Of a DNA stretch of 64,000 bases, positions 34,533 through 59,900 are shown one piece after another. Numbering within the stretch: the first letter of the stretch is position 1; every line of letters begins with the position of its first letter. The notes under the pieces are model-generated. The model made no database searches, had not been told where the DNA came from, and saw only the letters and a list, made by a program, of their open reading frames with translations. The stretch comes from Candidatus Multivoradales bacterium (GTDB taxonomy: Bacteria > Acidobacteriota > Thermoanaerobaculia > Multivoradales > JAHEKO01). The stretch spans positions 320,001 to 384,000 of the forward strand of contig CBDCVR010000015.1 of assembly GCA_965223155.1 (NCBI GenBank), written 5' to 3'. The position numbers and the translations under genes are program-made.

Positions 34533-36416
34533 ATGCCGCGCTTACCGGAGCCTCGGGCCTGGATTCATCATGCACCATTGGGCACGGGCGCCGCCGGTCT
34601 CGGAGCGGCTCTGTTGGGCGCACTTGAAGGGTTTTACCTCGCCCGCGGCGACTTCCGCTTCGGCTACCGGCAGTTTCTCGAGTTCGAAGTGGCGTACTTC
34701 CTGGTGGGCGCCACAATCGGCCTGGGCCTGGTAGTCACTGTCCTGGGGTTGGACAGCCTTCTTCGGCGCACGAGCCAGAACCGGGCCCGAGCGCCTCTCG
34801 TTTGGTATGCCATCGCGACTTGGGGCCTCTTGGGCGGGATCCTCCTGAACAAGTTTGCCTTCCCTGCCTTCTTCTCACCGGTGTCCTTGCTCGGCAACGC
34901 GGCCTTGGTCGGCGCGCTTTTCGCGTTGCGCTGGCCGCTATCGAAAGTCCGCATGCACTCCGTTCCGGGTCGTCTCCTGGCGTTCGCGCTGTTTGTGCTC
35001 CTGGTTCTAGCGCCTCTTGTGGCACCCGGCTCCGAGGAACAACGGCGTGCGACCAGCGCCGATTCGTCGAGTCTCGAACCGGCCCCGCAAGACGCACCCA
35101 ACATCGTTGTGGCGCTTGTCGACACGCTTCGAGCCGATCACCTGGGAGCATACGGCTATCGGAGTGACGTCAGTCCGGCCATGGACTCGCTCGCCGCAGA
35201 GGCCGTGGTATTCGATCGCGCATACAGTCCGTCCAACTGGACCCGGCCTTCCGTCGCGACCCTGATGACCTCTACGCTGCCGTCTCGACACGGAGTCACG
35301 GAGATCAACCTCGCCCTTCCTCCGGACCTGCCCCTACTCGCCGAGTCCTTCCAGAGCGCCGGCTACGAGGTCGGATTCTTCACGAACAATCCAAATGTAG
35401 AGCCCGAAGACGGCTATTGGCGGGGCACCGACCATTTCCATGCTTTCTCGGCGCGCGGCTTTCTCGGCCGAACGGTCCTGTTCGAGCTCTTTCTCGACCG
35501 AGACCTGCGCGGCGTTGCCAACTGGCTGAGATCGATCCTGGGCTACTCCACAGGTCGAGAGTACACACCGGAGTCGATGACCGAGGCCGCGCTCGAATGG
35601 ATTTCCGAACGGCGCGGCCCCTACTTCGCTTACATCCATTTTCTCGGGCCCCACGCTCCCTACGCACCACCTGAGCGCCACTTGGAGGCGTTGGGGGCGT
35701 CGTCCATGGACCTCGGCGCGGCGCACCCACCATCTCCTACTGCCGGCCACGACGCCATCCCCGCGGCCGTCCGCGAGCAAATGATCGCTCAATACGACGG
35801 CGCGATCCTCTGGCACGATGAGGCCCTCCGGAAGCTCTTTCAGGGCCTGGCGGGTGACACGGTCGTGGTCCTCACCTCCGATCACGGCGAGGGTTTCGGA
35901 GAGACCGGATTCTGGGAACACGGCGTGGGGCTATTCGATGAGATCGTACGGATTCCGCTGATCTTTTACTGTCCCGGGCGATGCGGAGACCCCCGGCGAG
36001 AGGCGACGCCGGCCAGCCTGATCGACGTCGGGCCCACTCTTCTTCAGTTGGCGGGGTTGCCGACCCCGGCGAGTTTCGACGGCAGGGCGCTGACGATCTC
36101 GGCCCCCGCGAGTGCTCCGGACCGAACCCCAACGGTCGTCATCGAGAACCCCAAGAACGACGAGACCTCGCTGCGTACGCCCGACTGGAATCTGGTTTCC
36201 TGGAAACGTGACGACGGGACACAACGCTGGCTTTGGCCCGCCGACGAAGCGACTCCCCGGAGTCTCGCTCCCGACAGGACAGAGGTGTTCGCAGAGCTTG
36301 AAACTCTATTGAACCGGCACCTGGAGCTCAGCCGGTCTCGCGCCCGCCGACCCACCGAGCTCGACCTCGGCCAGGACCGGCTCGAGCAACTCAAGGCGCT
36401 CGGGTACCTGGACTAG
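34533..36416 (+). CDS. membrane-anchored sulfatase-like (alkaline phosphatase superfamily) protein
   Basis: About 5 TMs; DTLRADHL, SPSNWTRPS, PHAPY, TSDHGE, EHG; ends LKALGYLD. Confidence 0.88.
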   Translation: MPRLPEPRAWIHHAPLGTGAAGLGAALLGALEGFYLARGDFRFGYRQFLEFEVAYFLVGATIGLGLVVTVLGLDSLLRRTSQNRARAPLVWYAIATWGLLGGILLNKFAFPAFFSPVSLLGNAALVGALFALRWPLSKVRMHSVPGRLLAFALFVLLVLAPLVAPGSEEQRRATSADSSSLEPAPQDAPNIVVALVDTLRADHLGAYGYRSDVSPAMDSLAAEAVVFDRAYSPSNWTRPSVATLMTSTLPSRHGVTEINLALPPDLPLLAESFQSAGYEVGFFTNNPNVEPEDGYWRGTDHFHAFSARGFLGRTVLFELFLDRDLRGVANWLRSILGYSTGREYTPESMTEAALEWISERRGPYFAYIHFLGPHAPYAPPERHLEALGASSMDLGAAHPPSPTAGHDAIPAAVREQMIAQYDGAILWHDEALRKLFQGLAGDTVVVLTSDHGEGFGETGFWEHGVGLFDEIVRIPLIFYCPGRCGDPRREATPASLIDVGPTLLQLAGLPTPASFDGRALTISAPASAPDRTPTVVIENPKNDETSLRTPDWNLVSWKRDDGTQRWLWPADEATPRSLAPDRTEVFAELETLLNRHLELSRSRARRPTELDLGQDRLEQLKALGYLD

Positions 36417-36488: not shown

Positions 36489-37733
36489 CTAGGGCGAGAC
36501 GACTTCAAGCCTCTCGGCGATAGCTCGAGCGGCCACGCGAATCCCTCGGCCGTTCCAGTGGGTATCGTCTCTCCAGAACGTGTACTCGCCATGAGCGAGA
36601 TGAAGACGAGACGCCTGGGTCAGTTCGGGTGTCAAGTCTAGGAACGGTACTTCGAGATCGGCGGCCATCAACTCCAGAGCCTCGACTTGAGCATTCGACA
36701 ACGCCCTGTGCCTCTTCCCGTCGACCAGTGAGGAATAGACACGGTACTTGGTGGGAACGAAAACGAGCAGGGCGACCCGATCGGCCACTTCCGCGAGCAG
36801 CATTCGATCGTGACTTGATAGGCAAGGATCTCGCCGAGTCGCGACTCGAACATAGGACTTCAGGAAACCCAACTCTTCGCCTCCAACGGACTCGGTTGAA
36901 ATCGGGTCGTCATCGACTGACCGAAGCCGCCCTCCGGCCCTCGAACTGAGTCTCGAATAGGCTCGCCGGCTCGCGGAATACACGAAACGATAGGTCTCGA
37001 GGTTGCGGATCAGTGCCGGGATCCAAACCAAACGTCGGCGCACCGAGCTCCGCCTCTTCGAGCCTCGTCGGCAGGGAAAGTCGTTGCCTTCGAACAGCAC
37101 GACCACGGCCTCGAACCCCCCATCGAACAAGTCATCGAGATAAGCAATCCGCTCCACGTAGTCTGCGATGTCGCCAGGCATGCCCGCGTTGTAGGCAGGA
37201 AGGCCGAAATCCCGCGACAAGACTTCGCTCAGAATCTCGGCCTGTGTCGTTCCTGATCCCACGACGAACGAATCTCCGAAAACTACGATCGGCTGATCCG
37301 AATAATCGGCCGTGTTCCGCAACCCCAGTTCGTCTGTGACAAACCGCACCGTACGAGGCTCAGCGAGCGAAGCTCGGGACGACATGGCCACGAGATCGCC
37401 AAAACGAACCTGAAATCCCTCCACCGTGCGATTCGGCCGGTAGTTCGCAAGGGGCCCATCGGCACCTGCGTAGATCAGCACCTCATGGGGACGATAGTAG
37501 TGAGGACGCAGGTCCGCCGGTAGAGCGCGAAGAAGGACCTCGCCCCCAAGCACCGTGATGGCCAAGGGCGTTGCGACAAGCGCGGGTGCCCAGACCCTCC
37601 CCGAACGGCTCAGAACAAAGGTGGCGATCCCGCTCAAAGCCGCCGCCAGAAAGGCGGGAACAGTGCAGATAAGAAGGACTATCCACAGGACCACGAACGG
37701 GAAGAAGGCCTGGCCAGGCGGAACTCGAATCAT
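36489..37733 (-). CDS. AlgJ/AlgX-like SGNH protein, membrane anchored
   Basis: N-terminal TMs; GLRN, FGDSFVVG, FEGND, FVPTK, DDTHWNGRG. Confidence 0.82.
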   Translation of the reverse strand: MIRVPPGQAFFPFVVLWIVLLICTVPAFLAAALSGIATFVLSRSGRVWAPALVATPLAITVLGGEVLLRALPADLRPHYYRPHEVLIYAGADGPLANYRPNRTVEGFQVRFGDLVAMSSRASLAEPRTVRFVTDELGLRNTADYSDQPIVVFGDSFVVGSGTTQAEILSEVLSRDFGLPAYNAGMPGDIADYVERIAYLDDLFDGGFEAVVVLFEGNDFPCRRGSKRRSSVRRRLVWIPALIRNLETYRFVYSASRRAYSRLSSRAGGRLRSVDDDPISTESVGGEELGFLKSYVRVATRRDPCLSSHDRMLLAEVADRVALLVFVPTKYRVYSSLVDGKRHRALSNAQVEALELMAADLEVPFLDLTPELTQASRLHLAHGEYTFWRDDTHWNGRGIRVAARAIAERLEVVSP

Positions 37734-37820: not shown

Positions 37821-39869
37821 TTAGTCGAGATACCCGAGAGCGCGCAAGCTGTCCTTCTCGGACTCATTGAGGCCATCTGAAGCTGCTCCTTGGCCCAAGC
37901 TGCCGACAAAGTCTCTTGATCCGGCAAGATCTACAAGAAGACGCTGCATTTCTTCGACCGTTTCCGGCCTCTCTAGAGCCACGTTCTGCTGCTCACCCGG
38001 ATCCTGGGCGAGATCGTAGAGTTGATGTAGGGGCCCTAGATCGAGGCCGATCGAACGAGAGTCTGCGATCGATCCGTACGAAGTTCGAAATATGTACTTG
38101 TAGTCCTGGGTTCGGATACCAACGAGTCCGGGACCGAACGCAGTCCCTTCACTGACCACCGGTCGATCTCGACTATCCGAGTCGTCCAGCACGGAGCGGA
38201 GAGACTCTCCCTGAAAGCTCCCTGGGACACCAATCCCCAAGTAGTCGAGGATCGTCGGAGCAATGTCGATCGATCGAACTTGAGTCGTAAGTCGCGCCGG
38301 AAACTCCACGCCGGGTAGTCCGCGGAATAGCAACGGCACATGAAGCTGCTCGTCGAAGAGTGAGAGGCCGTGGGGCCAACGCGAAAGTAGCGCATCCGAG
38401 CGGCGACCGTCGCTATGGAACTCTTCGCCATGGTCAGAAGTCACCACGATGACCGTATTCTCGTCTAGATCGAGTGCGGCAAGCCTTCTCATTAGCCGCC
38501 CCATATAGTCGTCCGCTCGTTGAATGTCTCCGTCGTACCGGGCCTTTCGCCGCTCGTCTGCGCCGGCCATGCTCCACTTGAGTCCCTCGTCCCTCAAGAA
38601 CGTCTCCGAATCGTAGGGACGATGTGGCTCATAAGTATGCAGAAACAAGAAGAAGGTCCTGTCGCGATTGCGATCCAGCCAATCGACAGCCTTCGAGAAC
38701 ACCTCTTCGATATCCGATGCGGTAATGAGCCCCGATTCGTCGTAGCTATCGAAGCCCTTGTTGAGCCCGAAATGCGCCGAGATCGCCCCACGCCCGGTGA
38801 TGGCGGCCGTTAGATATCCCTCATCTCTCAGAAGCGATGCGAGCGTGGGCAGGTCATCCCGCCAACGTGTGGTAGAGCCCGGACCTTCGAGACCCGCGCG
38901 ATGGCGGTTTGGGTAGGTCGAGGTAAAGATCGACATATGCGCAGGTAGAGTCCAAGGAGACTGACTGTAGCAACGCTCAAATACCACGCCTTCCGAAGCT
39001 ATTGCTTCGAGACTCGGGCTCGTCGGCCTCCCGTATCCATGGAGCGACAGGTGGTCCGCTCGAACCGTATCGAGAGAAACAAGAAGCACGTTCCGCCGGC
39101 TTGGTTGCTTCTTGGACCGAATTCTAGGCATCCGAAAATGAAGAAAGTCCGAGGCGCTCAGGTTGAAGGGCAGCTCCTCCGAAACCACTGCACTCCTTTC
39201 AAACACGAACTCTCTTCCGGCGCCGACAACCGACTCCAACGGCAGGCTCAACTCGGTCCACCCCTCGTTGGCTCCTTCCACTTCAAGCGTCCTTTGAACG
39301 AGTGTCGTCGCAACACCCGACTCCGGGTCCTTGATTGCAATCATGAACGTGGCCGTCCCGGCAGTGAGGCTTCCCAACTGTGGCTCGATGCCAATTGCGG
39401 TATCGAGGACCATGTCTGCCGCGACATCCGCCTGCCATGTCGCGTCCGAGTCCCCGGGGCCGACAAACACTTGAGAGGTCGCGCCCCCTAAGACAGCCTC
39501 TCCTCGACGCGCGATCCCTTGCAAGAGACCCACAGCCTGGTGGCCCTTGCTCTGTCTTGGGACTATCCGGAGCCGATACTCCACACGGTCTTGAAGCTCA
39601 GCAAGATTCGGCCAAACAAGAACCAGCGTAGCCAGGCAGATCATGATCGGAGCCCACAACAGCCGCCAGCGACCCATCCCGACCACCAAACCGAAGCCGA
39701 CGAGGGCAAAGAACACGCCGTAGGCGAGCACCAGGACAGCGCGATCTTCGATCTCGCCGTCTTCGCTAAGAAGCCGGCCTACCAGCCACGGATGGCACAG
39801 GAAGCTAAGACCGACGAGTGTTCCACCCGCGAACCATCGCACGGAAGCGCGGACCTCTTGACGGCTCAT
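37821..39869 (-). CDS. membrane-anchored sulfatase-like protein
   Basis: TMs; DTVRADHL, SQSPWTLPAHMS, HTYEPH, TSDHGEE; ends LRALGYLD. Confidence 0.88.
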   Translation of the reverse strand: MSRQEVRASVRWFAGGTLVGLSFLCHPWLVGRLLSEDGEIEDRAVLVLAYGVFFALVGFGLVVGMGRWRLLWAPIMICLATLVLVWPNLAELQDRVEYRLRIVPRQSKGHQAVGLLQGIARRGEAVLGGATSQVFVGPGDSDATWQADVAADMVLDTAIGIEPQLGSLTAGTATFMIAIKDPESGVATTLVQRTLEVEGANEGWTELSLPLESVVGAGREFVFERSAVVSEELPFNLSASDFLHFRMPRIRSKKQPSRRNVLLVSLDTVRADHLSLHGYGRPTSPSLEAIASEGVVFERCYSQSPWTLPAHMSIFTSTYPNRHRAGLEGPGSTTRWRDDLPTLASLLRDEGYLTAAITGRGAISAHFGLNKGFDSYDESGLITASDIEEVFSKAVDWLDRNRDRTFFLFLHTYEPHRPYDSETFLRDEGLKWSMAGADERRKARYDGDIQRADDYMGRLMRRLAALDLDENTVIVVTSDHGEEFHSDGRRSDALLSRWPHGLSLFDEQLHVPLLFRGLPGVEFPARLTTQVRSIDIAPTILDYLGIGVPGSFQGESLRSVLDDSDSRDRPVVSEGTAFGPGLVGIRTQDYKYIFRTSYGSIADSRSIGLDLGPLHQLYDLAQDPGEQQNVALERPETVEEMQRLLVDLAGSRDFVGSLGQGAASDGLNESEKDSLRALGYLD

Positions 39870-39988: not shown

Positions 39989-40729
39989 ATGCGAAGCGGC
40001 AAGATCGCTCGAACTTCGACGACGACGCTCTTACCGGCGGCGACGAGGTGTCTACGTACGGGACCGATCCGCTGAATGCCGATACTGACGGCGGAGGTCG
40101 TTCCGATGGCGATGAGGTCGCCACTGGTACCGACCCACTCGACCCCAACGATGACTTCCAGCCGTTGCCGGTGACTCTTCCCGATGGCGGCGGCTATGAC
40201 TGGGCGGTTCAGGACGACGGCTCGGTCGGCACTTGGTCTGGTGAAGCCTTCCAGTCCGGGATGAATCTCTTGATGGACAACCTGTACTTCGGATTCTTCG
40301 ATGAGGCAATCCCCGAAGACGGGCGGCGCGAACTGGTGATCGGGCCGCAGTTGCGCTCGGGCCTCGAGATCAGCCGGAAGGTCTTCGTGCCGACTGATGA
40401 CGCCTTCGTCCGCTACCTCGAGGTGGTTCACAACCCGGGCAGCACCGAGGCCACAATCTCCCTCCGTGCGGAATTCGCTGGATCCACTCGATCCCGCGGA
40501 TGCGACCCAGGACCCTGATCTCGACGGCCTGACGAACCTCGAGGAGCAAAGCGCCGGAACGGATCCACACGACGGCGACACCGACGCCGACGCACTGAGC
40601 GACGGCGACGAAGTCAACACCCACGGCACCGATCCGACCAATCCGGATACGGATGGTGGTGGACGAACGGACGGCGACGAGATCCTGGTCGATGGGACCG
40701 ACCCTCTGAATCCGGCCGACGACCTCTAG
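39989..40729 (+). pseudogene. collapsed gene with TSP3-like Ca-binding repeats (DTDGGG.SDGDE..GTDP)
   Basis: RBS+ATG at 39989 in one frame; repeat-coding segments lie in other frames (about 40021-40475 and 40478-40729). Confidence 0.65.
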
Positions 40730-40842: not shown

Positions 40843-42684
40843 ATGCCCTCGATCCTGGGAATCTCAGCCTTCTACCACGACAGCGCCGCGGCTCTGGTCG
40901 TGGACGGGAAGATCGTGGCCGCGGCCCAGGAGGAGCGGTTCACCCGCAAGAAGCACGACTTCCGCTTCCCTCAGAAGGCGATCGAATACTGTCTCGCCGA
41001 GGCTGGGCTCGAAGCCTCCGAGCTCGACTACGTCGTCTTCTACGACAAGCCGCTGACCAAGTTCGAGCGGCTGCTCGAGACCTATGTCGCCTACGCCCCG
41101 GCCGGGTTCCGTTCGTTCAAGAAGGCGATGCCGCTGTGGCTGAAGGAAAAGCTCTGGATGCCGCGCCAGATGGACAAGGGGCTCGGCAAACAGTTCTCCG
41201 GCCGCTACGTCTTTACCGAGCATCACGAGTCGCACGCGGCGAGTGCGTTTTTCCCTTCGCCCTACGAGGAAGCCGCCATCCTCACGATGGACGGGGTCGG
41301 TGAATGGGCGACGGCGAGCTTCGGCACCGGCCGCGGCAACCGCATCGAGCTCACCCACGAGCTCCACTTCCCCCATTCCCTCGGCCTTCTCTACTCGGCC
41401 TTCACCTACTACACCGGCTTCCGGGTCAACAGCGGCGAGTACAAGCTCATGGGCCTAGCGCCCTACGGCGAGCCCAAGTACGCCGAGGTCATCCGCGAGC
41501 ACTTGATCGACCTGAAGGACGACGGCTCGTTCCGCATGGACATGTCGTACTTCAACTACTGCCAGGGCCTGACCATGACCTCGGCCAAGTTCGACCGACT
41601 CTTCGGCGGCCCGCCGCGCCAGCCCGAGTCCGAGCTGACCCAGCGGGAGATGGATCTGGCCGCTTCGGTCCAGTTGGTGACCGAGGAAATCGTGATGAGC
41701 ATGGCCCGGCACGTCCATCAAACAACCGGCATGCAGAACCTGGTGCTGGCCGGGGGCGTTGCCCTCAACTGCGTCGCCAACGGCAAGCTCCTGCGGGAAG
41801 GGCCGTTCGAGTCGATCTGGATCCAGCCGGCGGCCGGGGACGCTGGCGGCGCGCTCGGAGCGGCCCTCTTCGTCTGGCACCAGCTCCTGGACCAGCCCCG
41901 CTCGATCGCCGGCAAGGACGGCCAGTCCGGATCGCTCCTGGGCCCCGAGTTCACAAACGACGAGATCGAGGCGGTCCTGACCGAGGCCGGGGCCGTCTTC
42001 GAGCGGCTCGACAACGACGACGCCCTCTACGACCGCGTCGCGGGCCTCATGACCGAGGAAAAGGTCGTGGGCTGGTTCGCCGGCCGGATGGAATTCGGGC
42101 CGCGCGCCCTGGGCTGCCGCTCGATCGTCGGCGACGCCAGGAGCCGGGACATGCAGCGGACCATGAACGTCAAGATCAAGTTCCGCGAGTCCTTCCGCCC
42201 CTTCGCCCCGGTGGTGATCTCGGACAACAACCACGAGTACTTCGAGTTCGAAAAGGGCCAGGAGAGCCCCTACATGCTGGTGGTCGCCGACGTGCGCGAC
42301 GGCAAGCGCATCCCGATCCCTGAAGATGCGGCCAGCGCGCAGGGGCTCGACAAGTTGAAGGTCATACGCTCCGAGGTGCCGGCGATCACTCACGTGGACT
42401 ACTCGGCCCGCGTCCAGAGCGTCGACCGCGAGCGGAACCCCCGCTTCCGCGGGCTCCTCGACGCTTTCTACGCCAAGACCGGATGCCCGGTCGCGATCAA
42501 CACCAGCTTCAACATCCGGGGCGAGCCGATCGTCTGCACCCCCGAGGACGCCTACCGGTGTTTCCTCGCCACCGACATGGACGTTCTGGTGCTCGAGAAC
42601 TTCGTCCTGTTGAAGGAAAACCAGCCCGAGCTTCTGAGCCGGCGCGAACGCGACAAGTACATCGCGAGCTTCGATCTGGACTAA
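40843..42684 (+). CDS. O-carbamoyltransferase (NodU/CmcH/SxtI family)
   Basis: ILGISAFYHDSAA, EERFTRKKH, HH.SHAAS, GEYKLMGLAPYG, GGVALNCVAN, EFGPRALG.RS, KFRESFRPFAP, NTSFN. Confidence 0.95.
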   Translation: MPSILGISAFYHDSAAALVVDGKIVAAAQEERFTRKKHDFRFPQKAIEYCLAEAGLEASELDYVVFYDKPLTKFERLLETYVAYAPAGFRSFKKAMPLWLKEKLWMPRQMDKGLGKQFSGRYVFTEHHESHAASAFFPSPYEEAAILTMDGVGEWATASFGTGRGNRIELTHELHFPHSLGLLYSAFTYYTGFRVNSGEYKLMGLAPYGEPKYAEVIREHLIDLKDDGSFRMDMSYFNYCQGLTMTSAKFDRLFGGPPRQPESELTQREMDLAASVQLVTEEIVMSMARHVHQTTGMQNLVLAGGVALNCVANGKLLREGPFESIWIQPAAGDAGGALGAALFVWHQLLDQPRSIAGKDGQSGSLLGPEFTNDEIEAVLTEAGAVFERLDNDDALYDRVAGLMTEEKVVGWFAGRMEFGPRALGCRSIVGDARSRDMQRTMNVKIKFRESFRPFAPVVISDNNHEYFEFEKGQESPYMLVVADVRDGKRIPIPEDAASAQGLDKLKVIRSEVPAITHVDYSARVQSVDRERNPRFRGLLDAFYAKTGCPVAINTSFNIRGEPIVCTPEDAYRCFLATDMDVLVLENFVLLKENQPELLSRRERDKYIASFDLD

Positions 42685-42694
42685 GAGACCGCCG

Positions 42695-43105
42695 ATGATC
42701 GACATCAACTGGAATCCCACGAAACGCGAGCTCCGGCAGTTCTCGGTCGCACTCCTCGTCGCCTCGGGGCTGGTCGGCGGCCTCCTCTGGTGGCGGCTGG
42801 GACCCAATCCCTGGTCTCAAGCGCTCTGGATCGGCGGCCCGATCGCCTCGGTCATCGGCCTCCTGGCTCCGCCCGCGATCAAGCCCCTCTTTCTGGGCCT
42901 GACCCTTCTGGCCTTCCCCATCGGCCTGGTCATCGGCACGCTCGCCCTGGCTCTCGTCTACTACGGCATGGTCACCCCGATCGGGCTCGTCTTCCGGCTC
43001 TTCGGGCGCGATCTCATGAAGCGCAAGCCCGATCCCGAGGCCACGAGCTACTGGATCCGCCGGCCGTCCCAGGTCCCGGCCAAACGCTACTTCCAGCAGT
43101 TTTAG
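42695..43105 (+). CDS. SxtJ-family membrane protein
   Basis: ELRQF, TMs, YYGMVTPIGL..RLFGRD, SYWI, ends YFQQF. Confidence 0.85.
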   Translation: MIDINWNPTKRELRQFSVALLVASGLVGGLLWWRLGPNPWSQALWIGGPIASVIGLLAPPAIKPLFLGLTLLAFPIGLVIGTLALALVYYGMVTPIGLVFRLFGRDLMKRKPDPEATSYWIRRPSQVPAKRYFQQF

Positions 43106-43136
43106 CGCTAGAATCGGCAGCGGGAGAGCGAACACC

Positions 43137-43334
43137 ATGAGCCAATCCGACCGTAGCGATTTCGAGCAAGCAGCCCAAGCCGGACGGCAGAGCTTCCTGT
43201 CCGAGTTCGCCCAGTTCCTGATGGAAAACAAGAAGTGGTGGATGGTCCCGATCCTGGCGGTCCTGCTTCTGGTCGGCGTGCTGCTCATCGCCGGCGGTAG
43301 CGGCGTCGCGCCGTTCATCTACACGCTGTTCTAG
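43137..43334 (+). CDS. DUF5989/SxtK-like small single-TM protein
   Basis: EFAQFLMENKKWWMVP-TM-APFIYTLF; GGAG RBS. Confidence 0.88.
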   Translation: MSQSDRSDFEQAAQAGRQSFLSEFAQFLMENKKWWMVPILAVLLLVGVLLIAGGSGVAPFIYTLF

Positions 43335-49011: not shown

Positions 49012-49305
<294 letters not shown>

Positions 49306-49381
49306 TAGAAAACTCCTCCTCCATGGTTCGTACGAACCGTTTGATTTGGGATGACTTCGCTCGATCGGGGCGGAGCGCTTG

Positions 49382-49408
49382 TTAGCACTCGGCCCGGACG
49401 AGTGCCAA
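49382..49408 (-). promoter_or_regulatory. CIRCE (HrcA operator)
   Basis: TTAGCACTC-N9-GAGTGCCAA, one mismatch to consensus. Confidence 0.95.
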
Positions 49409-49436
49409 TCGTAGCCGCAGGCCGCAGGGGTGTCAA
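49408..49436 (-). promoter_or_regulatory. sigma70 promoter of groESL
   Basis: Minus strand TTGACA-17 nt-TACGAT abutting CIRCE. Confidence 0.88.
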
Positions 49437-49988
49437 GAGGGGTGGGCTGAGGGAGTGGCCTGGGAAGGAACCCGCGGGCCGCCGCGGGCCGCTCTTTCGA
49501 GAAGCCTTTCCGGGAAATAGCCGGACCGGCGGCTCGACAAGGGCGGGCCCCCGCGGCCGGGCACTGAAAGGATTCTGGATCTTGCGGCACCGGGCCAGAG
49601 TCGGGCCCAAGATCCACCCAAACCGGCCAAGATCGGCCGGATCGAGCCTAACTGGCCGGCGAACTCTCGACAAAATTTGTCGCAACCCTGTGATAGCGTT
49701 GTCACACTTCGCGAGTCACGCGGTTCCAGGCCGCAGCCCAGCGGCCGTTTCCTGATGGGAGGAAAGCGAATGGGACATCGACTCTGTCCAGGCTCTCGGA
49801 CCGCCGGCCGGCCCGGCGGCTACTGGACAACTCCACGCCACGCTGGCAAGTGGCGAACCGTCAGCCTTGCGCTGCGAGGCCGGCTGTCCTTGCGTGTCCT
49901 TCAGACTCGCGGACCGAAGAGTCCAAATCTCAGAACGACATCGGTCCACGCCAAGCAAGCGACGGCCGCAGGGCCAGGAACCAACACC

Positions 49989-52412: not shown

Positions 52413-53426
52413 ATGGAGTATGTTGGCATTGATGTTCACTCGAAGTACAGCGAGGTTTGCGGGATATCGGAAGAGGGGGAAGTGACGCTTCGCCGGCGGA
52501 TTCCGACTACGGAGACAGCCTTGCGCCGGTTCTTCGGTTGTCGTGAGCAGTCGCAGGTGACGCTCGAAAGCGGCCCGGTGACTCCTTGGGTGTACCGGTT
52601 GCTGTGTGAGCTGGGACACGAGGTGACGGTAGTCAACCCGCGGCGGGTGCGGCTGATCGCGGAGTCGACATTGAAGACCGACGGAATCGACGCCGAGGTG
52701 TTGGCTCGATTGAGCCGGTTGGATCTCGACCTCCTGCGTCCCGTGTACCAGCGTACGCGTGAGGCCCAGGAGCTTCGGGCCAGGCTTCGCGTACGTACGA
52801 GCCTGGTCAAAGCCAGGACATCGTTGATCAACGCGGTGCGTGGAACGTTGCGAGCTCAAGGGTACCGAGTGCCATCGTGCCCGGCCAAGAGCTTCGTCGT
52901 GCGCTACGCATCGATGGGTCTCGACAGTTCTCTTGCGGAAACGATCGATCCTCTGGTGACGACGATCGGCGAGTTGACGGATCGGATCAACCGGCTCGAG
53001 AAGGAGCTCGTAGCCGAGTCGAGCTCAAACGAGCTGTTGGTGCGGCTTCAGACGGTCCCTGGGGTGGGCCCCTTGGTGAGCTTGGCCTTCCTGGGTTGGA
53101 TGGATCGCCCGGATCGGTTCAGAAAGAGTCGAGACGTGGGTGCGTGTTTGGGCTTGAGACCGTCGCTTCGAAGCTCAGGAGGACACGAGATCCGAGGCCG
53201 GATCACACGGGAGGGCGACGCCGAGATGCGAAGGCTTCTGGTTCAAGCGGCTCATGCGGCGTTGAACTGTCGCAAAGAGTCGTCGCTCAAGAACTGGGCT
53301 GAGAGCTTGGTCGAGAGGCTCGGCAAGGGCAAGGCCGTCGTGGCCCTAGCGAGGAAGATCGCAGTGTTGCTCCATCGGCTATGGGTAACGGGCGATACTT
53401 TCCGGGCGTTCCCCCAGGCGGTGTAG
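52413..53426 (+). CDS. IS110-family DEDD recombinase/transposase
   Basis: VGIDVH, LESG, KTDGIDAE.LA, VPGVGP, GL.P..RSSGG, G.ITREGD, VALARKIA. Confidence 0.95.
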   Translation: MEYVGIDVHSKYSEVCGISEEGEVTLRRRIPTTETALRRFFGCREQSQVTLESGPVTPWVYRLLCELGHEVTVVNPRRVRLIAESTLKTDGIDAEVLARLSRLDLDLLRPVYQRTREAQELRARLRVRTSLVKARTSLINAVRGTLRAQGYRVPSCPAKSFVVRYASMGLDSSLAETIDPLVTTIGELTDRINRLEKELVAESSSNELLVRLQTVPGVGPLVSLAFLGWMDRPDRFRKSRDVGACLGLRPSLRSSGGHEIRGRITREGDAEMRRLLVQAAHAALNCRKESSLKNWAESLVERLGKGKAVVALARKIAVLLHRLWVTGDTFRAFPQAV

Positions 53427-53459
53427 AGCCTAGAGAACATCAGGTCGCACCAGAAAGGA

Positions 53460-53630
53460 AGGACGGATTGAAAGTTTCGATGACTCCGAGAAAAGGGTTG
53501 GAGGCCAGGACTCCGCGTGCCAGATGGGAGCATCGAATCCTCAACGGACGAAAAACTCACCATGCACCGGTCCAAGAAAGGACCCGCCAGAGTGCGAATA
53601 GAAGCTCGTCCTGAGGCTCCATCCGAGACC
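53460..53630 (+). ncRNA. predicted bridge RNA / seekRNA
   Basis: Two stem-internal loop-hairpin arms in the 3' non-coding end whose loop strands match the insertion flanks and element ends (see finding). Confidence 0.75.
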
Positions 53631-54674
53631 CGAAACACATGGGGAGACGATGACAGACACCTTGACCGAAACGACCGACTCATAGAACCCTTTTCGCAAG
53701 AGCTCCTATTCCTCTGTTTTCGACGGATCCCTCCCAAGAGGCCACGCCCCCTTTTCGGGGGAATACGCCTCGCCGCCCACTCCCTAGCTTCAAAGTTACT
53801 CGCTCCCGAGACGGTCGAGAGCGACCCGAAGCATCGCGTTCTGCCGCTCCAGCTCCCCCAAGCGTCTCTCTTGCTCGAGCGTGTACAGCGTCAACTCTTC
53901 GAGCTTCTCCAACAGTTTCATTTGCATTCTGGTCACATCAAGCCCCTCGCGCGCCACGTCATCCGCCGTGGGCACTCCCGGAAGGTGTTTGAAGGCCCGC
54001 ACGTAGTCATCGAGCTCGGCAAGGGGCATCAGCTCGTAGTCGGGCTCGAAGACGTAGTCCGGAACAAACTGGGTCGTCGGCGAGCACTGACTCGTGTCGC
54101 TGCAGGCAATCAGATTGCCTCGAAGCGTCAGCGTCCCCATAGCCGATAGTGCCAGCTCCGTAGCGCCCGACTTGTCTCTCGAGATCTGAAAGCCGATCGA
54201 CGGATCGTTCTCGAGCTTCCAGTCGTTGTTGGCACTAACGGTGTCCTCGATCATGAGCACGCTCTTGCCGTTGTTGGTGATCGTGACGAGCTTCTGGGTT
54301 CCCGAGCCCGTCGAGTCGACGATGTGCAGAGGCGTCTCGGGCGCGTACGTCCCGATCCCGAGGCGATTGTTCAGGACCAGGCCCCCGGCAAGCACGAGAC
54401 GACCCGCTGCGCTTGGTTCGAGGCGTAGGTCCTCAACGCCGTTACCTGCGAGGGAAAGGATGAACGCGTTCGCATTTGCCGATTGCTGCCAGGTCGTGTT
54501 CGTCGACGAATCTGTAAGAAAAATACGAGGTCGGCCGTTATTGATGATCTGAAGAAGGGTCCGTTCTCCACTTGTTGCAGACGCCTCTTCAACGGTCACC
54601 AGCGCCGACGCGTCCGTCCTCTTCACATGCACTGAGGATAAGGGCGCCTGGGTACCAAAACCGACGTTGCCACT

Positions 54675-56045
54675 GAGTTATCGTCAAATGTTGTGTACGG
54701 GTGACTCAGGCGGCGATCCGGTTCTTGGGTTCTCCATCAACGAATTTGACACCTCGGACAACGTCGGCGATTCGCTTGTAGCCCTGTAGCCGCCGCCATC
54801 GTTTCTCGGCACTCTGGCTCAGCTTGAAGACCATCGAGAGCATGGTCTCGCGGGAGAGACAACCACGGGTCTTGGCCGTTCGAAGGCGTACGGTGGCAAA
54901 GGTCGACTCGATCGGGTTCGTGGTCCTGAGATGGACCCAATGCTCGGCCGGGAAATCGTAGAAGGTCAGCAGGACCTTGCGATCCTTGGCCAGGCAACGC
55001 GTCGCCTTCGGGTACTTGGCCCCGTAGGTCGACAGGAAGGCATCGAAGGCTCGCTCGGCAGCCTCGCGCGTTTCGGCCATCCAGACCTGGTGCAGCGCCT
55101 GCTTGGCCTTTGGCTGGACGGCCTTGGGCATCTTGTTCAAGACGTTGCCGGTCTTGTGGACCCAGCAACGCTGGGTCTTGGTGTTGCTCCAGACCTGAGC
55201 CAGGGCCTTCCAGAAGCCCAGAGCGCCGTCACCGGTCGCCAGCTTCGGCTCGATGGCAAGCCCTCGCGCTTCGAGTCCACGCAAGAGCTCGAGCCAGGAA
55301 GCCTCGCTCTCGCGGTAGCCGTCTTCGACGGCGATGAGCTCCTTGGTGCCGTCCTCGGTGGCGCCAATCAGTACCAGCAGGCACAGCTTCGCGTCGTCCA
55401 GACGAGCCTTGGTATGGATCCCATCCGCCCACACGTAGACGTAGCGCTTGGAGGACAAGTCCCGGGTGCGCCAGTCGGTGTACTCCTTGGCCCAGACTTT
55501 CTTCAGACGGCTGATCGTCGCGGCTGACAACCCCGGGGCGTCGGGGCCTACCAGAGCTTCCAGGGCATCGGAGAAATCTCCGGTGGAGATGCCGCGCAGA
55601 TAGAGCCACGGCAGCAGCTCCTCGACGCTCTTGGCCCGTCTGAGATACGGAGGCGCGATCTTCGAGCGAAAGACCAACTCACCTTCACGATCCCGAACCC
55701 GAGGCACCTTCACCGGCACACCTCCGATTCCCGTCTGGATCTCACGCTCGCGCAGGTAGCCGTTGCGAACCATGCGGCGCCGGCCATCTTCCGTTTGCTC
55801 GCCTCGGTACTCGGCCAGGAAGCTCTCGACCTCGGCTTCGATCGCTTCGCGAAGCAACTCGCGTGAGCCGCGGCGAAGCACTTCGGTCAAGGCATCTCTC
55901 GAACTCTCTGATCGGTCAATCGAAACTACGTTACTCTTGCTCAAGGCGTATCTTCCTTCTTTGAGGGTTTGAATCCGATTTGGAAAACCGGACTCAGGAT
56001 ACGCCGCCTTCATCTCAACTCATACACAACTTTCGACCATAGCTC
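54675..56045 (-). mobile_element. IS256-family element with 9-bp target duplication
   Basis: 23-bp IRs with 4 mismatches (GAGTTATCGTCAAATGTTGTGTA / GAGCTATGGTCGAAAGTTGTGTA); TSD GTTGCCACT at 54666-54674 and 56046-56054. Confidence 0.93.
54706..56013 (-). CDS. IS256 (mutator-type) transposase; true start may lie downstream
   Basis: RNGY..R, VPRVRDR, WADG, GDGALG, QRCWVHK, RTTNPIES. Confidence 0.93.
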   Translation of the reverse strand: MKAAYPESGFPNRIQTLKEGRYALSKSNVVSIDRSESSRDALTEVLRRGSRELLREAIEAEVESFLAEYRGEQTEDGRRRMVRNGYLREREIQTGIGGVPVKVPRVRDREGELVFRSKIAPPYLRRAKSVEELLPWLYLRGISTGDFSDALEALVGPDAPGLSAATISRLKKVWAKEYTDWRTRDLSSKRYVYVWADGIHTKARLDDAKLCLLVLIGATEDGTKELIAVEDGYRESEASWLELLRGLEARGLAIEPKLATGDGALGFWKALAQVWSNTKTQRCWVHKTGNVLNKMPKAVQPKAKQALHQVWMAETREAAERAFDAFLSTYGAKYPKATRCLAKDRKVLLTFYDFPAEHWVHLRTTNPIESTFATVRLRTAKTRGCLSRETMLSMVFKLSQSAEKRWRRLQGYKRIADVVRGVKFVDGEPKNRIAA

Positions 56046-56235
56046 GTTGCCACTTGCCGTAACGTGTACAGCATCCTCTGAAGAGAAGGCAGCGCCCGCT
56101 ACCCAAGCAAGTAGAACTGCAAATGACAAGAGATCGCGAAACGCTACTTTACCCATACGAAGAAACCTCCTGGTTATCTCTCAGCTATACCTCTGAGACA
56201 TGTCGTGGACCCCGGAAACCGTCGCGATGTTGACC

Positions 56236-56850
56236 TGACCTGACCCCCGAGTCCGCGCAGTGCTTATGAGAGTCTCGGCGGTTCATAGATGATACTCGCT
56301 GCGGGAGCGGAAGCCGCCGGAGGCGGCTGGAGCTCCTGCAGCGTCGCGTACTCCTCGGGGCCAGGTCGCCCAGCGATGGTGCAGCTTGCCCCGGTTGCAG
56401 TCCTGGCGCCAGGTCTCGATCTGTCGCCGAGCATCGTCCAAGTCGAGAAACCAGTGTGCGCTCAGGCCATTCGTGGCGAAACTTCCCGTTGAAGCTCTCG
56501 ACGAAGCAATTCTCGACCGGCGTGCCCGGTCGAATGAAGTCGAGCTGAATGCCTCGGCGGTACGCCCAGGCATCCAATGCTCGACTCGTAAGCTCTGGTC
56601 CGCTATCGACAATCACGGTCGTCGGAAGGCCGAGACGCTCGATCACTCGATCCAACACACGTCCGACCCGCTCGCCGGAGATCGACGTATCGACCTCAAT
56701 CGCGACACACTCGCGTGTGAAGTCGTCGACGACGTTCAACGTCCCGAAGCCGCGACCGGTCTCAAGACCGTCGGAGGCGAAGTCCATCGACCGGCGTTCG
56801 TCGGCCCGAGTCGGCGCCTCCCGACACTTGCGCATCTACAGCTCCCTTCT
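56236..56850 (-). mobile_element. IS3-family remnant (OrfB integrase core fragment, frameshifted) with one terminal IR
   Basis: SMDFASD, NVVDDFTREC, DSGPE, FIRPG.P.EN.FVESFNGKFR; C-terminus in another frame; TGACCTGACCCC end. Confidence 0.8.
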
Positions 56851-56944: not shown

Positions 56945-59900
56945 TCAGGTGACGATCTGACTCGCCGCCGAACACGCAGACCAGGCTGTGAAGGCCAGCC
57001 TTTCATGCCTCGCGGCGAGCGCCTCGGGTGTGTCGAAGTACTCAAGCATTCGGAAGGAATTTTGCCCCATCTTCACTCTCCCTTTCTTGTCGGAAAGAAG
57101 CCGCCCTAGCTGCCGAGCCATCTCCTCTGAATCGCCAAAATCAAAGCACAAGGCATTCACTCCAAGGCGCACCTGCTCTCTGACACCGCACGGAGAGGTC
57201 GTCACAATCGGCAGACCGTGGGCCATAGCCTCGAGCATGACAAACGGATAACTCTCGACCATTGACGAGAACGCAAAGATGTCGGCCGCAGCATAGTAGG
57301 TGTGGACATCTTCTGTCTCTGGTACTAAGCGAACAACCGACTCAAGCTCCAGCGTCTCCACTAGCTGTTCGAGATACCGAGTGTAAGGGTCACCTACGCG
57401 CGCGCCAACGAGCAGAGCGCACATGTCCCACCCATCCTGCCTCAAGATTTTCAACGCCCGAACGAGGGTTTCTTGGTCTTTTCGCGCACAAATAGTGCCT
57501 ACACTGACAATCACCGGGCAGTCTTCGCGAAGACCGAGACGTCTGCGGGCATCCAACTTCGACGGTCTTGTACGGACCGCTTCAATCTCTGCTCTAGAAA
57601 GAGAGTTGTAAAGTACAGAGAAATTGCCGGCAGCATTCAGTCGCTCATACAAGGAACGAGTGCAGTAGGATCCAAACACAACCTCAAAGGCCTTCGAAAA
57701 AGCAGCCTCGCATCTCGGAAGCGCGAAGGACTGTAGAAGTCTCATCCTTACAGCTTCGGAGTAACTTTCCTGGACAAACCACACCGTCGGAATCCCCAGC
57801 CGTTCCGCAGCCTCGACGACGAAGTAGTTGTTCAGGACAGAAATGAAAACCACATCTGGCCGGAGTTCCTCCAGGTGACGTTGAAGATGATCTGTCGCAG
57901 CGTCAAGACCGCCTCGGTCGGCCCAGTCAGCGAGGACATTTCCAGTCCCGGGCAGGTTCACCACCTTGCAGCGAACCTTCCCTTCGAACTCGCGCCGGAG
58001 ATCGCCATCGGAGAACCCGAGCACCATCGGCTCAACATAGCGACTTTTCGTTAAGCCGTGAGCAACATTCAGCAAGATCTTTGGGCCACCTTCAAGATTG
58101 AAGCTGGGAACAACGCATAGCAGTCGGAGCTTTGACTTCAGATAGTTCTCGTATCCCAGGGAGCTCTCCCGTCCAACCTTGAAGCTCCGGCGTGAAGATA
58201 GATTCGGGTTGTAGAATCGGTCTTCTACTGGGTGTCTGACCTTGTATCTCGCCAATTCGGCCGGGTCATCTTCTCTCGTGCGTGAGGAGGACTCGTGGTG
58301 GAGGAGCAACGCGTCGGCAACGTAGACAGTGCTCAGGCCTCGCTCTCGCAGCCGCAGACAATAGTCAATGTCGTTTAGCGACACAGGAAACCGACCTTCG
58401 TCAAACCCCCCTAACGCATCGAAGAGGCTGCGCTTGGTCAAGAGACACGCTCCGGTGACAGCAGAGACCTCGCGCGAGGTCTCTGCGAGGAAATAGTAGC
58501 TAGGCACCGTAGAGGGATCACCCTGAAAGGCGTGATCGGGCCGACCAATTTCACCGTGATTCAGCAGAACCCCAGCATGTTGAATGCGTCCGTCCGGATA
58601 GAGAAGCTGGGCGCCCGTGGCTCCGACTCCAGGAAGTCGACAGTAGCCGACAAGTCTGCTTAGCCAGGACTCTTCCAGCACTTCGCAATCGTCGTTTAGA
58701 AAGAGAAGGAACTCACCGCGAGCGGCCTTGGCCGCGATGTTGTTCAACCGGCTAAATGAGAAGCCACGCTCATCGTCGACCACCCGCAAGACTTCAATTC
58801 CGCGCGAGGGAAGTCCTCCCAGGTATTGCAACGTTGTAGGAGAGTCCGACCCATTGTCTACGACCAAGATCGAGTAGTTCTCATACGTCGTCTTCTTGAG
58901 GATCGAGTCCAGACATTTCGACAAGAGGAGGTGCTGATTCCGAGTTGGAATGATGATTGTCACCTCGGGGCCAATCACCGACCAGTCCAGTTGGCTAATC
59001 GGAAGGCCGAGCTCTTGGGCCACTTTCGAAGGGTATGGGACAGCATTGATGGAGCAACGATCCAAACGATCCTTCAGCGCTTCGTAGGCGGCCTTGCGAA
59101 CGATCGGCTTCTCATCTGCACTGAGAGCTGTCGAACCAGGCACCGCCCGCCAGTGGTAAAGAACCTTTGGGATCCGCACGATGCGAGCCGTCAGCTCGGT
59201 GAGCCTGAGCAACAAGTCGTAATCCTGAGCGCCCTCGAAGGTCGGTCGAAAGCCGCCAATCGACTCGAACAATTCTCGCCGAACAGACGTAAGGTGGTTT
59301 AGATAGTTGTAGCCCAGGAAGAGCGTTGGCGACCAATCCGGTTTGAATTGAGGGTCATAGCGGACGCCGCGACTCGAAATCTTGTCTTCATCCGAATAGA
59401 TAATGTCCGCCTCGGGCTCGTGCTCCAGCACACGCGCGACCTCAAAGAGAGCATTCGCAGCGAGGACATCGTCGTGATCCAGGAAACTTAGGAATTCGCC
59501 CTTTGCGAGGGAGGCCGCCTCGTTGCTCGCATGGCAAATGCCTCTGTTGCAATCTAAGGTCACTACCTCGATTCGCGGATCCTCGTTGTACTTCCTCAAT
59601 ACTTCCACCGTCTCAGAACGGTGTGAGCCGTCGTCCGCGATGCACAGCTGCCAGTACGGGTAGATCTGCTCCAGGACAGACTCAATCGCTTCAGTCAGGA
59701 TCTCCGGGTCGGTATTGAATACGGGCATGACGACGCTAAGGACAGGTTTCTCATTAGAGCGAGTAATCGCTTGAGAGAGGAGATCGCGCACGCGTGGCGT
59801 TACGGCGTTTACTTCTCTGTACCGAGCGTAGGCATCAGCCTCAACTCCAGGAGGTGGCATGGCGTCGCGGATCTCACATGGGCCACTCAAGATACCTTGG

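Follow-up and report, generated by a model that had tools for sequence, protein, structure and literature searches.

The small membrane protein DltX carries D-alanine on the invariant tyrosine of its C-terminal FXYXXF motif, an "acyl shuttle" that takes the group from the MBOAT protein DltB to the SGNH protein DltD (PMC12148441). The available text of the same paper reports that PatA acetylates the corresponding tyrosine in its own tail, the acetyl-tyrosine being used by PatB, and that OatA likewise uses an acetyl-tyrosine, which feeds the OatA SGNH domain. In the saxitoxin literature, from 2009-2010 to a 2025 review, the available text lists sxtJ and sxtK as genes of unknown function and proposes sxtL as a decarbamoylase (PMC2679770, PMC2885083, PMC12300590); the cluster table of PMC2679770 has the GDSL-type sxtL following sxtK. 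Here we describe a trio of genes at positions 40843-43334 of a 64,000-nucleotide stretch of DNA (the window) from Candidatus Multivoradales bacterium (contig CBDCVR010000015.1). They code for a carbamoyltransferase, an SxtJ-like protein and a microprotein of the family DUF5989, which is SxtK-like. As such, the trio is an sxtI/J/K-type module of the kind already known. A first reading of the window, made from its letters alone (the sequence-only reading), had proposed that carbamoyl groups are relayed through the microprotein to an SGNH protein. We find that the microprotein ends in an acyl-shuttle-type motif with a conserved tyrosine, and that SGNH genes are enriched at the trio in other genomes. 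We propose, tentatively and at slightly less than an even chance, that the trio is a carbamoyl-tyrosine relay to a periplasmic SGNH enzyme.

The DUF5989 peptide consists of a KKWW sequence, one hydrophobic helix and a final APFIYTLF, in which FIYTLF, at the extreme C-terminus and with its invariant tyrosine, is a DltX-type FXYXXF motif. Among the best 120 of 857 homologues (E ≤ 0.001), 119 end in APFIYTLF and the remaining one in APFIYTLV. A search of 1.84 billion cluster representatives returned 3062 representatives of 50%-identity clusters at E ≤ 0.001; a tyrosine stands at position −4 in 149 of the best 150 of these, and in the 150th the motif is displaced by a single additional residue at the end. 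The tyrosine on which the sequence-only reading depended is thus conserved. When 111 sequences were aligned, W35, P38, P59 and Y62 were invariant. Ends of the form F.Y..F were found in 3 of the 51,809 open frames of at least 40 residues in the genome, and only in the DUF5989 frame does the motif come after a membrane helix; the other two are copies of an arginine-rich frame that lacks a helix ahead of it. Given this rarity, the tail motif is not a chance occurrence.

The hydrophobic stretch of the peptide spans residues 32-65 in a Kyte-Doolittle scan, continuing to the C-terminus. The last 14 residues were uncharged in all 111 aligned sequences, and the 15 residues preceding the helix held on average 2.7 lysines or arginines. 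By the positive-inside rule, this asymmetry points to an N-in/C-out orientation with the tail outward, and the peptide is predicted from hydropathy and charge to be a single-pass protein of this topology, as had been supposed at the outset. Longer, fused forms of DUF5989 amounted to three matches only, probably mis-called starts. A reading of the tail as an outer-membrane beta-signal or as a sorting signal was dropped, by inspection only.

The same tail resembles those of MBOAT proteins. In six sequences from related genomes, the MBOATs end in NPFIYFIF or EPFLYFQF, so that they have in common with DUF5989 an element PF(I/L)Y..F, placed at the terminus after a helix. The DUF5989 profile gave a weak match to the C-terminus of one MBOAT frame (G018:C27; 19.7 bits, E 0.005), and hhalign, applied to the DUF5989 family and the MBOAT tails, aligned helix and tail end to end (E 3.2e-4, probability 38.9%). 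This likeness, which is not proof, suggests common descent or convergence. The resemblance to an acyl-shuttle motif that had been noticed in the sequence-only reading therefore holds on two counts, the tail being equal to the FXYXXF given in the available text of PMC12148441 and similar to the MBOAT tails of related genomes. A profile search of the PDB with DUF5989 returned chance-level matches only, and the protein atlas gave nothing usable.

The three genes are separated by 10 and 31 nucleotides, and GGGAG precedes the DUF5989 start codon. The DUF5989 match reaches the final position of the Pfam profile, and the microprotein is co-operonic with the carbamoyltransferase, as in sxtI/J/K-type modules. 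The tight operon described in the sequence-only reading, of a signal-less carbamoyltransferase, an SxtJ protein ending in YFQQF and a 65-residue peptide ending in PFIYTLF, was recovered with its three open reading frames in place. The carbamoyltransferase, sole copy in the genome, is without a hydrophobic segment in the Kyte-Doolittle scan and carries both Carbam_trans_N and Carbam_trans_C, as an SxtI-type enzyme does; on its sequence, it is assigned as a cytoplasmic O-carbamoyltransferase. Against the NodU equivalog of NCBIfam (NF041651) it scored 142.8 bits and did not reach the cut-off of 1000; it is classed as a member of the superfamily and not as a NodU orthologue. A scan for promoters and terminators at the trio gave nothing useful.

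The Pfam score of SxtJ is below threshold, yet an iterated search joined it to the gene in SxtJ position in 73 of 80 related loci (described below). Natural fusions of carbamoyltransferase and SxtJ were found in three protein clusters (761, 770 and 753 residues, with 100, 82 and 63% identity over the SxtJ part); these fused relatives carry PF19588, which supports membership of the SxtJ family. The fusions show that the two proteins work together and point to a cytoplasmic N-terminus of SxtJ. The fused form is seen at L060:10192-12474 (+) and in proteins P0273, P0274 and P0275, its two parts joined by a linker of about 30 residues. Among 72 SxtJ sequences the conserved residues were P8, F16, P59, G77, P95, R101, D106, W120 and Y132, with conservation concentrated in the lysine- and arginine-rich C-terminal tail (R101, D106, W120, Y132). 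This tail usually ends in RYFRQF and has a quite different ending in Bacteroidota. Four membrane helices are probable for SxtJ, whose two ends, the conserved tail included, would lie in the cytoplasm. The protein is probably a membrane adaptor of the carbamoyltransferase, its basic tail being read as a docking tail.

It could be that SxtJ and DUF5989 do nothing but hold the carbamoyltransferase in place and in the right orientation on the cytoplasmic side of the membrane, where it would carbamoylate a lipid-linked sugar or a nascent glycan before export; the outward tail would be a structural or assembly element that carries no group. The natural fusions fit such an anchoring role, as does the concentration of SxtJ conservation in its tail, for which a cytoplasmic position is predicted. 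DUF5989 itself has a conserved block, E23, K32, K33, W34 and W35, on its predicted cytoplasmic side, and the surrounding polysaccharide locus is of the Wza/Wzc type and includes an initiating sugar transferase. What this explanation leaves aside is the outward, uncharged tyrosine tail, among the most conserved stretches of DUF5989, and the fact that this tail copies the MBOAT shuttle motif with the preceding proline included. We consider an anchor-only role rather unlikely, and return to it below with the SGNH genes.

Eighty related loci from seven phyla were fetched, the best of which came from a Thermoanaerobaculia metagenome-assembled genome with 83% identity. The carbamoyltransferase adjoins DUF5989 in 67 of them by iterated search or in 68 by tblastn, and SxtJ does so in 73 or 68, respectively. 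Among the 12 loci in which tblastn found no carbamoyltransferase, five are near a contig end (L011, L017, L024, L047, L067), two have SxtJ and DUF5989 alone (L040, L048), and five have a lone DUF5989 (L019, L023, L049, L056, L069). In the genomes of these last five, a carbamoyltransferase is encoded elsewhere (5/5). At L049:10001-12648 (+), the lone DUF5989 is followed by a 378-residue protein with a C-terminal GNAT match and then by a 385-residue protein; the GNAT-type neighbour may be an alternative loading enzyme for DUF5989.

SGNH genes were collected by an iterated search, seeded with the window SGNH protein and with neighbours from other loci, and run to convergence. The family comprised 31 frames in 28 of the 80 loci. 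After one duplicate was dropped, 25 of 30 frames lay inside the trio or within 500 nucleotides of it, in 24 loci (12 Planctomycetota, 4 Verrucomicrobiota, 3 Bacteroidota, 3 Myxococcota and 2 Acidobacteriota), and 20 of these 25 were on the DUF5989 strand. The density of SGNH frames was 16.4 per 100 kb beside the trio versus 0.4-0.7 per 100 kb at distances of 0.5-10 kb, an enrichment of about 30-fold. Linkage of SGNH genes to the trio across genomes is thus real and position-specific, and an anchor-only role of SxtJ and DUF5989 leaves it unexplained. No other recurrent family emerged, either from a Pfam scan of 86 operonic neighbours, in which the most frequent family had 4 members, or from BLAST clustering of the open reading frames of at least 100 residues from the 80 loci. 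MBOAT genes were found in 0 of the 80 loci with six seeds from one bacterial order, a search that could miss a very divergent MBOAT.

The lineage of the window was analysed in 41 genomes, this genome and 40 relatives, and in 37 loci fetched from its order; the unpublished genome G005 is included in the DUF5989, MBOAT, SGNH-family and 37-locus counts. DUF5989 was present in 35 of the 41 genomes and MBOAT in 32, and 7 of the 35 DUF5989-bearing genomes, this one included, were without MBOAT. An SGNH gene lies directly beside the module in 10 of the 37 loci (L092, from genome G005, and L095, L099, L105, L112, L113, L121, L122, L123 and L124). A single lineage locus, L093 (1/37), has an MBOAT gene within 10 kb, together with an SGNH gene of its own, 3 kb away. 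At L099:1424-2710 (+) and L105:10001-11212 (-), an SGNH-DUF5989 pair stands alone, its genes 10-37 nucleotides apart, while both genomes (G016 and G023) have carbamoyltransferase and SxtJ elsewhere, the carbamoyltransferase on another contig. These pairs indicate that the peptide accompanies the SGNH gene when the module splits. If DUF5989 were only part of an anchor for the carbamoyltransferase, its staying with SGNH when apart from the enzyme would have no explanation.

Both SGNH proteins of the window match one SGNH profile, the 380-residue protein at 65.8 bits. The 414-residue protein belongs to the same family as the SGNH genes adjoining the trio elsewhere and is, by proximity and family, our candidate acceptor enzyme, the 380-residue protein being a weaker candidate for the partner. 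In 26 sequences, G153, S155 and H392 of the SGNH blocks were invariant and N217 and D218 nearly so; the block I serine, the block III asparagine and the block V histidine that define the superfamily are present. A structural model of the 414-residue protein (predicted local distance difference test, pLDDT, 72.8) recovered SGNH folds from the PDB. Most members of the family have one N-terminal helix preceded by lysine or arginine, and some have three, a pattern that would place the SGNH domain outside. The 380-residue protein has one N-terminal hydrophobic segment. The 414-residue protein has hydrophobic stretches of 33 and 20 residues, split by SRSGR, which we read as three spans.

The closest solved relative of the window SGNH protein was CgnD, both by sequence (8a2n, E 5.3e-15, nearly full length) and by fold (rank 1), with template modelling scores (TM-scores) of only 0.35-0.48 in the fold comparison. 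According to the available text of PMC10070186, CgnD sets free a modified C-terminal peptide; a carbamoyltransferase, CgnI, is encoded in the same cluster. By analogy with crocagin, the C-terminal residues of DUF5989 could themselves be the substrate, carbamoylated and then cut off by a CgnD-like SGNH peptidase. Against this, DUF5989 is a membrane protein family with more than 3000 clusters at 50% identity and a tail that hardly varies. The neighbours that can be named belong mostly to sugar pathways, and among the 86 operonic neighbours a crocagin-type dioxygenase or peptide-binding protein was absent from the 25 families seen most often. We regard a role of the peptide as substrate as very improbable.

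More generally, most solved structures related to the SGNH protein in sequence or fold are of esterases and hydrolases. This raises the alternative that carbamoylation is completed in the cytoplasm and that the linked SGNH proteins are periplasmic esterases trimming carbamoyl or acyl groups, the tail of DUF5989 regulating or positioning them and not being acylated itself. The genome is rich in this SGNH family while lacking MBOAT and having a single AT3 acyltransferase, which would be consistent with such editing. SxtL has been described as a candidate decarbamoylase, on the one hand, and no function of SxtL is demonstrated in the available text of the same sources, on the other (PMC2679770, PMC2885083). 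A tail that only regulates would not need its last residues to form an exact shuttle-type motif with an unchanging tyrosine, and we hold the editing explanation to be improbable.

For the carbamoyl-tyrosine relay, the proposed sequence of events is the following. The carbamoyltransferase would make an activated carbamoyl group in the cytoplasm from carbamoyl phosphate and ATP, as its family does, and SxtJ would anchor it at the membrane. DUF5989 would be DltX-like, with an amphipathic N-terminal part inside and an uncharged, glycine-hinged tail bearing PFIYxxF outside. Its Tyr62 would carry the carbamoyl group as O-carbamoyl-tyrosine and pass it on to a periplasmic, membrane-anchored SGNH enzyme, at its active-site serine; this enzyme would in turn carbamoylate the exported polysaccharide of the capsule or exopolysaccharide locus. 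As to loading, our guess is that the tail may dip into a funnel of SxtJ, as the DltX tail does in DltB. We infer here the topology, the covalent intermediate, the transferase role of the SGNH enzyme, the identity of the SGNH partner and the route by which the tyrosine is loaded. The wider claim, that an SxtJ-docked, adenylate-forming carbamoyltransferase, a DltX-like tyrosine microprotein and an SGNH enzyme form a third route of acyl transfer across the bacterial membrane, beside MBOAT and AT3, seems to us possible but on balance doubtful.

Several observations weigh against the relay. To our knowledge, loading of an outward-facing tyrosine by a soluble cytoplasmic carbamoyltransferase is without precedent, and an anchor-only role would not require this step. 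Enzymes carrying a carbamoyl-serine usually turn over slowly, as with carbamate inhibitors. In the 72 SxtJ sequences, the helices were without a conserved polar residue, so that nothing in them resembles the MBOAT histidine. The sequence-only reading had drawn attention to the YFQQF end of SxtJ as well. We rejected it as a second shuttle motif, because its tyrosine stands out of register, at −5 in place of −4, and lies in a tail predicted to be cytoplasmic; this tyrosine is conserved in 89% of the 72 sequences. Homology to DltX, whose Pfam family we take to be PF12459, was not detected in a Pfam scan of four DUF5989 peptides at E ≤ 10. Complex prediction for the window SGNH protein with DUF5989, both given as alignments, scored 0.01 in two runs, below threshold, and is evidence neither way.

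The SGNH side has its own difficulties. An adjacent SGNH gene was found in only about 30% of the loci, and the 56 of 80 without one are readily accommodated if SxtJ and DUF5989 are an anchor only. In the window, the nearest SGNH gene, that of the 414-residue protein, is divergent and 3.1 kb upstream of the trio, and the other is 23 kb upstream; in four loci of the same genus, no SGNH gene was found in the fetched DNA. The family is large, with members in 41 of the 41 related genomes. No single clade unites the linked SGNH proteins: the tree is poorly resolved, with long branches, and on it linkage required 8 changes against 9.4 in shuffles, and 95 of 500 shuffles were as low. CgnD, in the available text, is a slow peptide hydrolase and not a transferase (PMC10070186). 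The co-occurrence with SGNH genes expected by the sequence-only reading thus stood in 24 of 80 loci and five phyla, but not in the same-genus loci, not as adjacency in the window and not as a dedicated clade. The absence of MBOAT, which it expected alongside, was borne out in the 80 loci, as far as six seeds from one order could show, and in this genome. Should the relay be wrong, the invariant outward tail and the SGNH linkage would still need explaining.

Table 1. Features of the window, in window coordinates.
Feature	Coordinates	Strand	Evidence or remark
Carbamoyltransferase, NodU/CmcH/TobZ-type, SxtI-like, 613 residues	40843..42684	+	Pfam Carbam_trans_N E 2.4e-107, Carbam_trans_C E 1.1e-68
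SxtJ-like protein, 136 residues, ends KRYFQQF	42695..43105	+	Pfam SxtJ 22.1 bits (cut-off 24.4)
DUF5989 (SxtK-like) predicted single-pass microprotein, 65 residues, ends APFIYTLF	43137..43334	+	Pfam DUF5989 71.6 bits (cut-off 27)
PFIYTLF, acyl-shuttle-type FXYXXF motif	43311..43331	+	C-terminal end of the DUF5989 peptide; Tyr62 codon 43320-43322
Membrane-anchored SGNH protein, 414 residues, ALGX-like C-terminal part	36489..37733	-	Pfam ALGX E 1.3e-12; Lipase_GDSL_2
Second membrane-anchored SGNH protein, 380 residues	16225..17367	+	Pfam Lipase_GDSL_2 E 1.7e-6, 29.1 bits (cut-off 32.9)
Sulfatase-family protein	34533-36416	+	
Sulfatase-family protein	37821-39869	-	begins with clear hydrophobic stretches

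The genome (4.0 Mb, 98.66% complete) contains one DUF5989, one carbamoyltransferase and one AT3 acyltransferase, and MBOAT is absent from the window and from the whole of this nearly complete assembly. Two membrane-anchored SGNH genes and the lack of an MBOAT gene in the window had both been claimed at the start and were borne out. Nine SGNH-family frames occur in this genome without MBOAT and with its single AT3. The window is a polysaccharide locus, with Wza- and Wzc-like export genes, a UDP-glucose dehydrogenase, epimerases and several transferases of glycosyltransferase family 4 (GT4). It also holds the initiating sugar transferase, a PglD-like acetyltransferase, an aminotransferase and a Polysacc_synt_2 dehydratase, together with two membrane-anchored sulfatase-family proteins (Table 1), an ABC exporter and methyltransferases. 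It may be that these sulfatase-family proteins modify the glycan on the outside of the cell, as transferases of the LtaS/EptA kind.

Other features of the window are recorded here in their own right. Two overlapping frames at 40048-40518 and 40397-40729 (+) both encode aspartate-rich bacterial TSP3-type repeats and are probably one frameshifted gene, or a remnant. A 201-residue GroES frame at 49012-49617 (-) has its Cpn10 domain confined to residues 108-199, and its true start is probably further downstream. Three transposase or integrase genes, of the IS110, Mutator and rve types, lie together at 52413-56835, where the G+C content drops from about 0.65 to 0.56-0.61. The right-hand part of the window may therefore have been acquired or rearranged. 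At 56945-61834 (-), a 1629-residue protein combines a weak sulfotransferase match with two domains of glycosyltransferase family 2 (GT2) and one GT4 domain.

A search of 8.4 million texts found no mention of "DUF5989"; no text combined "acyl shuttle" with "carbamoyl", and the literature found on DltX with "microprotein" made no mention of a carbamoyltransferase. If the relay is true, SxtJ and SxtK (DUF5989) gain a first function, and GDSL-type partners such as SxtL would be the final carbamoyl-transferring enzymes and not esterases. The acyl-tyrosine principle of envelope modification would cover a chemically different group as well, with a loading enzyme outside both MBOAT and AT3, and a route by which carbamoyl could reach exported glycans would be explained. 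Annotators would also gain names for three very common genes.

With the crocagin cluster of Chondromyces crocatus, the locus has in common a carbamoyltransferase (CgnI) and an SGNH protein whose nearest solved relative is CgnD. In the available text of PMC10070186, however, CgnD was purified, used in solution and acts on a ribosomal peptide, and neither SxtJ nor DUF5989 is reported. The likeness to cyanobacterial sxtI-sxtJ-sxtK(-sxtL), drawn by family and from the published table and not by sequence, is one of three shared families in identical order, SxtJ having given the Pfam family its name; there they belong to a toxin cluster, whereas here they stand in a polysaccharide locus of an acidobacterium-like genome.

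The comparison with DltX, DltB and DltD rests on a stand-alone single-pass microprotein, an extracellular C-terminal FXYXXF with invariant tyrosine, and a genomic tie to a membrane-anchored SGNH protein, as described for DltX in the available text of PMC12148441 and with the topology of DUF5989 being predicted. Our locus differs in having neither an MBOAT nor a carrier protein; the partner is instead an ATP-dependent carbamoyltransferase with a small SxtJ adaptor, and carbamoyl is the group proposed. In PatA/PatB, in AlgI with AlgJ/AlgX, and in the AT3-SGNH protein OatA, a tyrosine at the outer face accepts the acyl group and feeds the SGNH serine, which is what we propose for Tyr62. In those MBOAT and AT3 systems, the motif is part of the same polypeptide as the membrane enzyme that loads the acyl group and has a transmembrane tunnel and a catalytic histidine, whereas in the trio no such enzyme is present and the motif stands on a separate peptide, with PFIYTLF in place of the PFIYFIF of the MBOAT tails in related genomes.

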